DNA of 64,000 nucleotides from Candidatus Dojkabacteria bacterium. GTDB taxonomy: Bacteria; Patescibacteriota; Dojkabacteria; B142; JAFGMG01. How positions within the stretch are numbered: the first letter of the stretch is position 1; every line of letters begins with the position of its first letter. The stretch covers positions 16,180 to 80,179 of the forward strand of contig JAFGMG010000010.1 of NCBI GenBank assembly GCA_016927655.1. Direction: 5' to 3'. The notes under the pieces are model-generated. The model was not told the DNA's origin. It saw nothing but the letters and a program-made list of their open reading frames with translations, and made no database searches. Positions 18,544-36,247 of this stretch are shown here, in pieces. The position numbers and the translations under genes are program-made.

Positions 18544-19371
18544 ATGAAATTTCAAAACAAGAACATCCTTATAACGGGAGCATCTTCAGGGATAGGCGCT
18601 GCATTTGCGAAGCAAGTAGCAGAAGACAAGTGTAATATCGTACTCGCCTCACGCAATATATCAAAACTTAAAAAAACTGCTGAAATGGTAGAGAATCTCG
18701 GAAGCACAGCAATTATAATACAAACCGACGTTACTAAGGAAGATGAAATCAGGAACCTTTTTTTAGAAGCTAAAAGAAAACTTGGCACAATAGATTTAGT
18801 ATTCAACAATGCAGGGCTTGGCCATATAGCAAAGATTCATGAGCTAACAGTTGACCAGATTAGACAGATAATTGATGTAAATGTATTTGGAATGATCACA
18901 GTCTCAAAATTTGCAGCCGAAGTCTTTACCAGGCAGAAGTCAGGCCACTTGATAATGACCTCATCTCTTGCAGGCCTTATAACATTGCCTGAGTGGTCAG
19001 TGTATGTAGCTTCAAAGTGGGCAATTCTTGGATTTGCAGACAGTATGCGCCAGGAAATGAAGCAATACAATGTAAAGGTCACTACACTTCACCCCGGTGC
19101 AGTTAGCACTGAATTTTTCGACAAGGACAAGGCCGATATTGATATTAAAGAAGCCGGCCAGGCGATAAGCCCGGAAAAAGTTTCCGAAGCACTCTACAAA
19201 GCGAGTTTTACGAACAAGAATCGAATTTTGATACCATCAAGCACCAAAATGTATGCATTCTTGTACAAATATGCGCCATCTTTGGTTAAATACCTGATTA
19301 GTACGCAGACGTCTAAGGTCAAATATCACGAGAATATCCAGGAGGACGAACCTGAATTTGACAAAGATTAG
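18544..19371 (+). CDS. short-chain dehydrogenase/reductase (SDR)
   Basis: TGASSGIGAAFA cofactor motif, NNAG, YVASKWA (YxxxK). Confidence 0.85.
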   Translation: MKFQNKNILITGASSGIGAAFAKQVAEDKCNIVLASRNISKLKKTAEMVENLGSTAIIIQTDVTKEDEIRNLFLEAKRKLGTIDLVFNNAGLGHIAKIHELTVDQIRQIIDVNVFGMITVSKFAAEVFTRQKSGHLIMTSSLAGLITLPEWSVYVASKWAILGFADSMRQEMKQYNVKVTTLHPGAVSTEFFDKDKADIDIKEAGQAISPEKVSEALYKASFTNKNRILIPSSTKMYAFLYKYAPSLVKYLISTQTSKVKYHENIQEDEPEFDKD

Positions 19372-30601: not shown

Positions 30602-30628
30602 AAATACTAATCATTATTTATTCTGATA

Positions 30629-30856
30629 ATGAAAAAATCTAGTTCAAACAATATTCTCAGACTTCTAACAAAGGCCTGGCTCATCGTAGTGTCCTGCTTC
30701 TGGGGATTTATGCTTCTAGGTTATGCAATTGGAGGTGATCCATACGCAGTTGAAGGTTCTGAACTAGAAGGGATTATTCTTGGTATTCTGATGATATTTG
30801 CTCTTAGCAGCACTATCTACACGTTTCGCAATGACGCCTTGGAAGCATGCTTCTAA
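30629..30856 (+). CDS. small membrane protein
   Basis: 75 aa, two TM. Confidence 0.4.
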   Translation: MKKSSSNNILRLLTKAWLIVVSCFWGFMLLGYAIGGDPYAVEGSELEGIILGILMIFALSSTIYTFRNDALEACF

Positions 30857-30990
30857 TTCTAGCTGGAATATTTTTGGCAATCTTTGCCGCACTGACGGCT
30901 GGCAGCAATCATATCTTTGCAATGGCAGTTTCTGGCGGAGTTTTCTTTCTTCCAGGAGCGATTCTTCTAATGATTAACTATAAACACTAA
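30847..30990 (+). CDS. small membrane protein in -1 frame overlapping previous ORF (possible frameshifted single gene)
   Basis: MLLILAGIFLAIFAALTAGSNHIFAMAVSGGVFFLPGAILLMINYKH read by hand. Confidence 0.3.
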   Translation: MLLILAGIFLAIFAALTAGSNHIFAMAVSGGVFFLPGAILLMINYKH

Positions 30991-31765
30991 ATAATTTTAC
31001 AAATTCATTAAATTCCAATTCCGAGGCTCGCGCCGCCAATTTTATTTCAGATTTCTTGAATATATTCTCCCAATCAGCTTCTTTATAAATTCCCCTCAAT
31101 ACTCCCTTCATCTGCTTTCTCGGTGACCTAAAGCAGTTTTTCAAAAACTTCACAAAAGCCTTGTAATCCTTTTTGTCTATTTCAGAGTGCTCCTTCTTTG
31201 TAAGTTTGATAACTCCGCCATCTACTTTTGGCATTGGAAAGAAATTTTCTTTTGGAATCGTTCTTAAATATTCAACGTTGTAAAATACTCGTACAAAATT
31301 TGCAAGAAAGCATGATTTTGGCGCTTCTGCAGCATAGTCTTGAGCCACCTCCTTTTGAAGTGTAAACACCATAATATCGGGTTTGTTTTCCAGCTCAATA
31401 AATTTTTTGATAATTGGCTTTGAGATATTGTAAGGAAGATTGCCGGTGACTTTGTAGTGATCTTTACCGGATAATTCTTCACTGGTTATCTCAAGTATGT
31501 CTTTATGAATTAGTTTGAAATTAGCATACTCACCGAATTTAGTCTGGAGGACTGGGATCAGATCATTATCAATTTCAATTGCCCGCAGCTCGATTGGTTC
31601 ATTTATCAAATACTCAGTCAATCTCCCATCTCCAGGGCCTACTTCTATAATATGATCACCGGGAACAATTTCCAAAGCTTCTATACTAGATAAAACGGCA
31701 TCTATATTCTTCAGGAAATTCTGCCCAAATTGTTTTTTGAAATTATGAGTCTCCATCAAGTTCAT
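30974..31765 (-). CDS. rsmA: 16S rRNA (adenine1518/1519-N6)-dimethyltransferase
   Basis: FGQNFL motif, VEVGPGDG SAM-binding. Confidence 0.85.
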   Translation of the reverse strand: MNLMETHNFKKQFGQNFLKNIDAVLSSIEALEIVPGDHIIEVGPGDGRLTEYLINEPIELRAIEIDNDLIPVLQTKFGEYANFKLIHKDILEITSEELSGKDHYKVTGNLPYNISKPIIKKFIELENKPDIMVFTLQKEVAQDYAAEAPKSCFLANFVRVFYNVEYLRTIPKENFFPMPKVDGGVIKLTKKEHSEIDKKDYKAFVKFLKNCFRSPRKQMKGVLRGIYKEADWENIFKKSEIKLAARASELEFNEFVKLFSVYS

Positions 31766-31859
31766 TATAACGGATAATATACATTAATCAACCTATCGCT
31801 TGATTTTGGATATTTCTTTAATATATAATTCAGAACTTTATTAAAATTGTAGAATGTGT

Positions 31860-32140
31860 TTACCAGAAGCTTCCTGTCCAGCAAATTGTGCTTTTAGATC
31901 AAAAGTTAATCCAGCTCAGGATGGAGAAATCCCAGGGCCAGAACATTGTGGGCTATTGAGGGGGTATAGTGCAGTTTTCTATCCAGACCCTCGCGAGAAA
32001 GGTGTACCTCTTGAAGCACACCGTCAAGGATTGAGACAGGCTCTAAACCATGAATTTGTTCAAGTACACGGATGTCGAAACCCGAACATTTTGATAGCAA
32101 TTGAAGAATTGGTAGACGACAGAACTAGTTAATTTTTATA
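31860..32140. ncRNA. candidate structured RNA in a GC-elevated intergenic island; family unassigned
   Basis: Hand count gives ~51% GC over 31921-32040 against a ~36% background. There is no convincing ORF. A short ACGACAGAAC string resembles RNase P CR-V, but the other conserved regions were not found. Confidence 0.3.
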
Positions 32141-32529
32141 CATTACTAAAAGAAAGAAATGGGAATGACCTCACCAGGAATAGAATGTGGAGCGCCAGCT
32201 TTTCATCCATGTAGCGCGAAGATAAAGGGCTGGAGAAAATTGTGGTGGTTGTACATTACTACATGGACTACAAACCCTCCCTCTTTCTAGCCTCACTCGG
32301 GAAGACAATAGAACAGCCGGAACTCTTATAAAGGCATTAGGAGCAGCTGGAGCAAGGAGAATGTCGATTAATATGCTAGCTAGTACAACTGCTGATTATG
32401 CAGAAAGTTATGGTTGTCCAGCATCAGGTTATGTTGAAGACCAAGGTATAAATATTCTCGAAGCAAGAACACCTTCATGGGATGAACCAACTCAACCAGG
32501 GGAATAATAGGTATAAATATCCTAAACTA

Positions 32530-33321
32530 TCACAACGCATTTTCATGCGCCTGCCATTCGAGGCTGTCATCTAGTGTTTCCAATTGCCCGAATTTTCTGC
32601 CGTACTTATTTTTCATTGCCAGCGATATTAGCAGATCAGCTATGTGTGGATTTTTTGGCAAGAAGCTTCCATGCAGGTACGTTCCAAATGCATTTTTATA
32701 TCTTAACCCATCAGAAATTCTATCCTCATTATCTCCAATTCCCTTTATAACTTTAGCTAACTTCATTTCATCTTTTCCAACAATCCTAGTCCTACCAGCA
32801 TGGTTTTCAAAACCAACAAGAGTAAACAAGTTTTTCCCCTTCACACCACCATAAGTGTAATATTTCCCAATCTCTTCTTTTGTCTTCTCATGAATAATTC
32901 TAGTCGAAATATTTCCAATACATCTCTGCTGAACATTTGGACCGGGAGCAACAGTTTCAATGGGGAAAAATCCAACTCCTTCAGCTTTTCTACTCTCCCC
33001 AGTTAAATAATATTTGCCCAGCAATTGATAGCCACCGCAGATGCAAAGAGCCACAGTACCGGTTCTTAAATCTTTAAGGAGTGCATCTTTCTTTTTCTCA
33101 ATCAAGTCAGGTGCAATATCCGCCTGCTGTCTGTCCTGCCCGCCACCAAAGAAATATATATCAGTTTCATTTGGCTTCAGCTTGTCACCAACTTTGACGC
33201 TCTTAATTTTGACTTTAATATCCCTGGCTTCAGCACGCCTCCTTAACACAATTACATTTCCAAGATCACCATAAAGATTCATCTCTTCAGGATACAAATG
33301 TGTTATTCTCAAATCCATCAA
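32530..33321 (-). CDS. gatD: lipid II isoglutaminyl synthase glutaminase subunit
   Basis: CobB/CobQ-like GATase with catalytic LCICGGYQLLG; immediately downstream of a MurT-like gene. Confidence 0.75.
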   Translation of the reverse strand: MMDLRITHLYPEEMNLYGDLGNVIVLRRRAEARDIKVKIKSVKVGDKLKPNETDIYFFGGGQDRQQADIAPDLIEKKKDALLKDLRTGTVALCICGGYQLLGKYYLTGESRKAEGVGFFPIETVAPGPNVQQRCIGNISTRIIHEKTKEEIGKYYTYGGVKGKNLFTLVGFENHAGRTRIVGKDEMKLAKVIKGIGDNEDRISDGLRYKNAFGTYLHGSFLPKNPHIADLLISLAMKNKYGRKFGQLETLDDSLEWQAHENAL

Positions 33322-33338
33322 AGCAATATTTTAACTAA

Positions 33339-36247
<2,909 letters not shown>

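Follow-up and report, generated by a model that had tools for sequence, protein, structure and literature searches.

The ksgA-gatD spacer and its flanking genes

The window (the whole 64-kb stretch that was analysed, to which all positions refer) belongs to a genome of Candidatus Dojkabacteria, a CPR bacterium and not an archaeon. Between ksgA/rsmA and gatD it contains a spacer of 764 bp (31766-32529), lying in gene-dense surroundings in which ksgA, gatD and murT are all encoded on the − strand. The neighbouring genes are as follows.

30974-31765 (−): ksgA/rsmA, 16S rRNA adenine dimethyltransferase, left flank (Pfam RrnaAD, E = 9e-50)
32530-33321 (−): gatD, glutaminase subunit of the MurT/GatD lipid II isoglutaminyl synthase, right flank (Pfam GATase_3, E = 8.5e-33)
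33339-34601 (−): murT, first gene of the ancestral murT-gatD-ksgA array (Pfam Mur_ligase_M and MurT_C)
34622-35746: tgt, divergent from murT

Both flanking genes named in the preliminary description are present, gatD being the glutaminase partner of MurT. Its product is a CobB/CobQ-type glutamine amidotransferase, the gene adjoins murT, and its homologues in protein databases are named lipid II isoglutaminyl synthase; assignment as an archaeal Glu-tRNA amidotransferase was rejected on the last two grounds. The true start of ksgA is probably Met4 at 31756, where the gene call of 260 aa in the Logan assembly begins; alignments of KsgA with its relatives start at residues 2-7. As had been stated, 31766-32529 contains no long ORF, the longest being 92 aa.

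Comparison with related lineages

Relatives were found with GatD in GTDB genomes and JGI metagenomes, closer ones were found via the protein database, and the contigs were compared. Seven loci, belonging to five related lineages, have ksgA directly after gatD, at distances from overlap to about 40 bp.

L062/L063: GatD 73% identical, gatD-ksgA spacer of 13 nt
L064: GatD 73% identical, gatD and ksgA overlapping
L065: GatD 72% identical, gatD and ksgA overlapping
L066/L067: GatD 65% identical, gatD-ksgA spacer of 9 nt
L001: GatD 53% identical, gatD-ksgA spacer of 39 nt

In L062/L063, KsgA is ~75% and Tgt 83% identical, and the order tgt|murT-gatD-ksgA is that of the studied stretch. The murT-gatD(-ksgA) arrays of these Dojkabacteria relatives (L062-L067 and L001) are like the studied one in flanking genes, order and orientation, but their gatD and ksgA overlap or lie at most ~40 nt apart, whereas 764 bp of antisense-oriented sequence intervene here. 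Searches with the spacer by blastn and tblastn against 67 loci gave no match except to L061, a second assembly (Logan, SRR13394437). Over 6279 bp, which take in the frameshift region described below, the two assemblies do not differ; L061 was probably made from the same reads as the MAG and is not independent support for an indel there. Since the spacer is absent in relatives with contiguous gatD and ksgA, the 764 bp are a lineage-specific insertion that splits an ancestral, tightly packed murT-gatD-ksgA array. Conservation of the ksgA-gatD spacer had been proposed as a check on a functional RNA, and neither the length nor the sequence of the spacer is kept in relatives.

The sole other long gatD-ksgA spacer (1.26 kb) was found in L028 (JGI contig Ga0209416_1000080; GatD 64% identical) and holds an opposite-strand gene for a 291-aa J-domain protein (Pfam DnaJ, E = 3e-21). 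The two inserts are alike in carrying an opposite-strand gene at the same junction, but they are unrelated at the DNA and protein level, and the possibility that the studied spacer is a remnant of the J-domain gene was rejected for lack of similarity. A remnant of the short-chain dehydrogenase gene that adjoins ksgA in relatives was likewise rejected: no match was found near the locus, and the comparison returned only a distant paralogue within the window, at 18565-19176.

An assembly artefact, in which foreign DNA was mis-joined into the contig, is scarcely credible. The genome is metagenome-assembled and the composition of the insert is unlike that of native genes, both of which would suit such an origin; but the genes on either side are those expected from synteny, so that two precise chimeric joins would be needed, the contig of a second assembler is identical over the 6279 bp, and the position-3 GC and codon usage of the insert fit the host.

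Coding statistics and GC content of the insert

ORFs at 31854-32132 (+, 92 aa), 31906-32100 (−, 64 aa) and 32361-32507 (+, 48 aa) had been reported from the spacer, and all three exist, with the peptides as quoted. The first (ORF1) has a product identical to a GenBank hypothetical protein of the Candidatus Dojkabacteria MAG, and the 64-aa ORF is antisense within its region. The following + strand features were delimited.

31854-32132 (+): ORF1, intact orphan gene of 92 codons containing the GC peak; GenBank hypothetical protein JW978_03185
31921-32040 (+): GC peak, due to codon positions 1 and 2 of ORF1; phase GC.72/.47/.33, p = 0.0015
32133-32158 (+): AT-rich gap from ORF1 to the next ATG, from the stop map and phase GC
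32159-32230 (+): probable N-terminus of a second cistron, MGMTSPGIECGAPAFHPCSAKIKG, one base behind the ORF1 frame
32226-32507 (+): second coding-like segment in the ORF1 frame, from phase GC and synonymous codons

GC at codon positions 1/2/3 is.61/.45/.27 in ORF1 (31854-32129; chi2 p = 2.5e-5) and.56/.57/.18 in 32226-32504 (p = 1e-8), the latter being in the frame of ORF1; its start-less part (32226-32360) alone gives.58/.62/.22 (p = 1.7e-4). The sequence between them (32133-32225) has values of.45/.29/.42 (p = 0.39), i.e. no periodicity, and is interrupted by four stops when read in the ORF1 frame. A run of 93 open codons has a probability of 0.0015 in Markov sequence with the composition of the spacer, and two such 93-codon open stretches share one + frame; each of the three − strand frames of the insert has 12-15 stops. 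None of the native 93-codon fragments (437 compared) and none of the 87 null ORFs shows as large a difference between GC1 and GC3. Scored on synonymous codons only, ORF1 (40th percentile) and 32226-32504 (85th percentile) fall within the range of native in-frame fragments, while the +1 frames scored below all native fragments. Scored over all codons, ORF1 has a log-odds of 0.027, which is lower than the 1st percentile of native fragments. Its amino-acid composition is responsible: next to native proteins, the products of the insert contain much Ala, Gly, Pro, Arg and Cys and little Lys and Ile.

A long open frame, three-base periodicity and host-like synonymous codon usage are thus all found on the + strand, which is, or very recently was, protein-coding in one frame. 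ORF1 had been set aside as aberrant; by phase GC and synonymous codons it is rather the best gene candidate of the spacer.

The spacer had been described as a GC-elevated island. The peak of ~51% at 31921-32040 was confirmed (0.508, a value that places it among the most GC-rich 0.8% of the 120-nt windows in the 64-kb stretch), but the spacer as a whole is not elevated: its GC is 0.398, compared with 37.9% for the window, and 22% of equal-sized windows match or exceed it. In neighbouring genes, 120-nt GC values reach 0.44-0.48. The local rise is produced by codon positions 1 and 2 of proteins with the amino-acid bias described above, position 3 remaining very AT-rich, and it is not an RNA-structure signal.

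Searches for structured RNA

The 64-kb stretch was scanned with cmscan against 4227 Rfam families, and at the gathering score six tRNAs only were returned, all outside the spacer. With lax filters and E ≤ 10, the sole match in 31700-32600 was a 13-bit eukaryotic scaRNA (SCARNA21), attributed to chance. The check with Infernal and Rfam that had been suggested for this spacer therefore yielded no family match in it. ARAGORN found 0 tRNA or tmRNA genes in 31500-32800, and the RNase P covariance models gave no match either at the gathering score in the 64-kb stretch or at E ≤ 10 in 31700-32600. Folding energies were compared with those of dinucleotide shuffles. The minimum free energy of 31840-32520 had z-scores of +1.34 (+ strand) and −0.04 (− strand), and thirteen overlapping 150-nt windows on both strands ranged from −1.17 to +1.79, so that no energy below the shuffles was found for the whole region or any window on either strand (all z > −1.2). 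No intrinsic terminator-like hairpin was present in the spacer. Covariation across relatives was not computable, as none of the 67 loci held similar DNA save the second assembly of the locus itself.

A match to the RNase P CR-V motif had also been noted.

32116-32125 (+): ACGACAGAAC, RNase P CR-V-like decamer in the last codons of ORF1 (…VDDRTS), chance match

The decamer is present, but no RNase P model matches around it even at E ≤ 10. The likeness to bacterial RNase P RNA (Rfam RF00010/RF00011) is limited to these 10 nt, which resemble part of CR-V; the spacer differs in having no covariance-model match, P4, CR-I or stable fold, and no sequence conservation at this locus.

That the GC-rich part is a structured non-coding RNA, whether a divergent RNase P RNA, 6S, SRP, tmRNA or a novel class, is accordingly very hard to sustain. 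The local GC of 51%, where the genome has 38%, and the CR-V-like decamer would fit it, and CPR genomes hold divergent RNAs that models can miss. Against this, no Rfam family was found at E ≤ 10 with lax filters apart from the chance scaRNA, nor any tRNA or tmRNA; neither strand as a whole nor any 150-nt window folds more stably than its dinucleotide shuffles; and GC content rises in step with codon positions 1 and 2, a pattern that would not arise from an RNA gene. The element is also absent from all relatives examined and so cannot be a housekeeping RNA at this site. RNase P, tmRNA, SRP and 6S RNAs are not supported, for want of an Rfam match, a fold signal and a conserved spacer. Of the three outcomes that had been named as refuting structured RNA, the main reading, two were observed: the missing Rfam match and the lack of spacer conservation.

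Promoter-like elements, translation initiation and inverted repeats

A consensus scan of the left edge of the insert and a comparison of its two ends gave the following elements.

TTGATT (31791-31786)-16-TATAAT (31769-31764) (−): promoter-like element facing ksgA, 10/12 consensus matches
TTGATT (31800-31805)-18-TATAAT (31824-31829) (+): promoter-like element facing ORF1, 10/12 consensus matches
31804-31815 and 32515-32526: 12-nt inverted repeat, TTTTGGATATTT and AAATATCCTAAA, with 1 mismatch, bracketing 31804-32526

The region 31764-31829 at the left insert edge would thus be a divergent promoter region, to judge from its sigma-70-like consensus matches. The two −35 hexamers together form AATCAA-N8-TTGATT (31786-31805), and the ksgA-facing −10 box lies 7 nt from Met4 (31756). 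The insert would separate ksgA from the murT-gatD transcript, and ksgA is now presumably transcribed from the promoter-like elements at the insert edge.

The ATG of ORF1 is located 24 nt downstream of TATAAT, behind an AT-rich leader without a Shine-Dalgarno sequence. Native genes are similar: a Shine-Dalgarno motif (GGAG, GAGG or AGGA within 20 nt upstream of the start) was found in 0 of 41 long native ORFs, and the sequence ahead of native genes is AT-rich and in many cases contains a −10-like box within a few bases of the ATG. As read from the sequence, the initiation context of ORF1 looks host-like, and we infer that ORF1 would be expressed and functional. Two small ORFs in the distal part of the spacer had been put forward as preceded by ribosome-binding sites; since native genes lack Shine-Dalgarno sequences, this argument carries no weight.

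The 12-nt inverted repeats may be the ends of the inserted segment. When the two 65-nt ends were shuffled 2000 times, a repeat pair of this kind appeared 44 times (post hoc p of ~0.02), so that the repeat departs only weakly from chance. No transposase domain was found in the insert with Pfam, and no second copy of the insert within the 64-kb stretch.

The second coding-like segment

The first of the two small ORFs, of 43 aa, exists, although at 32159-32290 and not at 32158-32295. Its ATG at 32159, 26 nt past the stop of ORF1, is the candidate start of a second cistron, and the composition of MGMTSPGIECGAPAFHPCSAKIKG resembles that of the downstream segment 32226-32507. The tail of the ORF, up to 32290 (WRKLWWLYITTWTTNPPSF), contains 4 Trp in its last 19 residues, compared with 1% Trp in native proteins, and this Trp-rich out-of-frame tail (WRKLWWLYITTW) runs against the periodicity, which changes frame ~55 nt before the stop of the ORF. 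The 43-aa ORF looks real only over its first ~23 codons.

The segment 32226-32507 has no ATG, GTG or TTG before 32361, and the 48-aa ORF (32361-32507) makes up its 3' part. Translation begun at the ATG at 32159 would enter the frame of 32226-32507 only via a +1 shift between 32226 and 32287; skipping of one base between 32226 and ~32240, where AAA (32224-32226), GGG (32227-32229) and AAAA (32236-32239) runs occur, would give a conceptual product of ~115 aa. The conceptual fusion used as a search query had 116 aa and an approximate junction, the exact +1 product being 115 aa.

We read the second cistron as a recent frameshifted pseudogene or an assembly indel, recoding being least likely. Programmed +1 frameshifting of the prfB type would similarly join the 32159 ORF to the frame of 32226-32507. 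It differs in that no CUU-UGA-type site is found here, in that the shift would take place well upstream of the stop of the ORF itself, and in that a Shine-Dalgarno-like stimulator is meaningless in a genome without Shine-Dalgarno sequences. No CUU-UGA-like slippery or stop site was present in 32226-32290, and for want of a prfB-like site we consider programmed +1 frameshifting unlikely. It is very improbable that the insert encodes a pair of functional, lineage-unique Cys-rich small proteins, arisen de novo or evolving extremely fast, of which the second would be made by programmed +1 frameshifting in a host without Shine-Dalgarno sequences. Alternatively, only the 48-aa 3' ORF, i.e. the last 48 codons, would be translated.

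The preliminary description had also considered small-peptide genes. The DNA is indeed coding-like, but the gene models differ, ORF1 being the best of them and the 48-aa ORF the 3' part of a longer segment. Two independent small-protein genes with ribosome-binding sites, at 32159-32290 (43 aa) and 32361-32507 (48 aa), are improbable. Both ORFs exist, AAGGAG stands ahead of the ATG at 32361, and the period-3 signal of the 48-aa ORF is strong (p = 5e-5); however, the signal continues in the same frame for 135 nt upstream of that ATG (p = 1.7e-4), and the coding unit therefore is or was longer than the 48-aa ORF. The AAGGAG, moreover, is 1 nt from the ATG at 32361 in a genome in which none of the 41 native ORFs has a Shine-Dalgarno sequence, and the last 19 residues of the 43-aa ORF, with their 4 Trp, are out of phase.

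Homology and structure searches

In a word-indexed search of 5.8e9 proteins, ORF1 matched only itself. An exhaustive HMMER search of 1.84e9 representatives returned, in addition to ORF1 itself, three giant tandem-repeat proteins (P0002-P0004, E down to 4e-41). These were rejected as sums of weak matches: each consisted of 6-22 matches of ~35 residues, at ~7 bits each, to a YPDG-type repeat, and Pfam detected no Rib or other domain in ORF1. The second segment and the fusion had no homologue among the word-indexed proteins, in JGI metagenomes and IMG/VR, in the PDB or among phages and plasmids. Searches of Pfam, NCBIfam, PHROGs, PADLOC and the PDB with ORF1, ORF2, the frame-0 segment and the fusion gave nothing significant, searches of JGI metagenomes and IMG/VR with ORF1 and the fusion gave nothing, and BLAST against phages and plasmids gave nothing. 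Neither product has a credible homologue in ~15 billion proteins, and none under purifying selection emerged from any of the searches.

A toxin-antitoxin or defence cassette was rejected, as neither product had a significant match in Pfam, NCBIfam, PHROGs or PADLOC. A template or variable repeat of a diversity-generating retroelement, or another kind of duplicate, was also rejected, matches within the 64-kb stretch being at chance level only, and no paralogy was found between ORF1 and the second product. Single-sequence AlphaFold2 models were of low confidence (pLDDT 55.7 and 41.1), and Foldseek of the low-confidence ORF1 model against the PDB gave nothing at E ≤ 0.001. Speculatively, the products could be small accessory proteins that bind metal or redox groups, since their N-terminal parts are Cys/His-rich and helical segments come after these.

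The locus resembles small ORFan genes of CPR and other bacteria in its coding statistics, promoter-like element, absence of homologues and position at a variable spot between conserved genes. It differs from them in that a cluster-level search of ~15 billion proteins returns only ORF1 and in that the second gene is frameshifted.

Discussion

On the insertion, the coding periodicity, the native-like synonymous codons and the absence of homologues and RNA signals, the best explanation, to which we give a probability of about 0.7, is a lineage-specific insertion with a small + strand orphan coding cassette, one gene of which is intact and one frameshifted. The insertion split the tightly packed murT-gatD-ksgA array in this Candidatus Dojkabacteria genome, bringing in an orphan coding cassette on the + strand, antisense to the flanking genes. 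ORF1 (92 aa) is intact and lies behind a sigma-70-like promoter element of its own, with an AT-rich leader that, as in native genes, lacks a Shine-Dalgarno sequence. The second cistron would run from the ATG at 32159 and continue in the ORF1 frame from ~32226 to 32507 if one base is skipped (~115 aa). It would be a recent pseudogene or carry an assembly indel; otherwise the last 48 codons alone may be translated.

It is unlikely, though worth keeping in mind, that the whole insert is instead a dead remnant of horizontally acquired genes, in which nothing is functional and ORF1 is still open as the decay is recent. The frameshift in the second cistron, whose frame-0 part has no start codon, is consistent with decay, as are the lack of a homologue or paralogue anywhere searched and the non-native amino-acid composition; the gatD-ksgA junction, moreover, holds an unrelated insert in L028 and therefore tolerates junk. 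However, two 93-codon stop-free stretches, with a probability of ~0.0015 each, stand open in an AT-rich genome, and ORF1 keeps a promoter-like element. Position-3 GC (0.18-0.27) and synonymous codons are host-adapted, which implies long residence under a maintained frame.

With an insertion carrying a coding cassette as the preferred reading, the insert is an ordinary orphan-gene locus, which bears on no long-standing question. With respect to the GC peak the result is mainly a negative one: GC may rise locally in an AT-rich genome without signalling a structured RNA, and a codon-phase GC check is a cheap way to tell an RNA from a coding reading. The locus is a clean case of a lineage-specific insertion splitting a conserved array of cell-wall and rRNA-modification genes, and ORF1, if expressed, would be one more uncharacterised small CPR protein.

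Insertions at the gatD–ksgA junction

An independent insert of 1.26 kb was found at positions 5799-7057 of L028, a relative's locus fetched for comparison, at the same gatD–ksgA junction as the insert of the window. L028 belongs to a different lineage (GatD 64% identical), and its insert encodes a protein of 291 amino acids on the opposite strand. This protein starts with a DnaJ (J) domain at the N-terminus, and its C-terminal part has no other assignment. The junction seems to be a spot of recurrent insertion.

Both ends of the window's insert carry short repeated elements:

31786-31805, left end: AATCAA-N8-TTGATT, a perfect 6-nt inverted pair made of two -35-like hexamers
32444-32458 and 32509-32523, right end: 15-nt direct repeat, AGGTATAAATATTCT and AGGTATAAATATCCT, 65 nt apart

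The second copy of the direct repeat and the right arm of the terminal inverted repeat overlap; the direct repeat may have been left by the insertion event or have arisen by chance. The hexamers at the left end belong to divergent promoter matches, one facing ksgA and the other facing ORF1, the 92-codon orphan gene of the insert, and the pair could additionally serve as a putative regulator binding site.

In the exhaustive protein search, ORF1 matched the giant tandem-repeat proteins P0002-P0004 with E-values down to 4e-41. These were rejected as homologues, the scores being purely sums of 6-22 weak repeat matches; multi-stretch scores against repeat proteins can thus reach apparent high significance without any homology.

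Neighbouring genes and gene order

The stretch from dnaE to the 3' end of ksgA holds two small hydrophobic, membrane-like ORFs:

30629-30856: ORF of 75 amino acids
30847-30990: ORF of 47 amino acids

They are in different frames, overlap by 10 nt and may represent a single gene for a small membrane protein that a frameshift has split. Neither had a Pfam match, and neither was called in the annotation of the second assembly (Logan, SRR13394437). In the relatives L065 and L066/L067 this position is occupied by a short-chain dehydrogenase (SDR) gene, of which no remnant was present at 30602-30973 of the window.

The placement of tgt varied across the Dojkabacteria relatives. In L001 and L028 it followed ksgA on the same strand, as it did, with an SDR gene in between, in L066/L067; in the window and L062-L064 it was divergent from murT. 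The difference is a local rearrangement inside the clade. One of these loci had broken gene calls:

L064 (ENA contig ATLA15-1 scaffold_2412), 329-1853: broken murT/tgt calls

Here murT was called as two ORFs (282 and 114 amino acids) and tgt as fragments, and the tblastn pieces overlapped; the breaks look like frameshifts of a low-coverage assembly, or pseudogenes.

Translation starts

None of 41 long ORFs in the whole window had GGAG, GAGG or AGGA within 20 nt upstream of the start, and the native genes appear not to use a Shine-Dalgarno sequence. A paper on CPR ribosomes (PMC9297842) describes the anti-SD motif as lost in a Parcubacteria subgroup only, not in Dojkabacteria. A TATAAT-like box was present 5-9 nt ahead of the start codon in 15 of 53 long ORFs, compared with 4.4% of all ATG trinucleotides. 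Example sites of this start-region pattern are:

31756-31769: ksgA
33321: gatD
34602-34621: divergent starts of murT and tgt

Together, the boxes near the starts and the apparent lack of Shine-Dalgarno sequences suggest that mRNAs here are frequently leaderless or have a very short leader.
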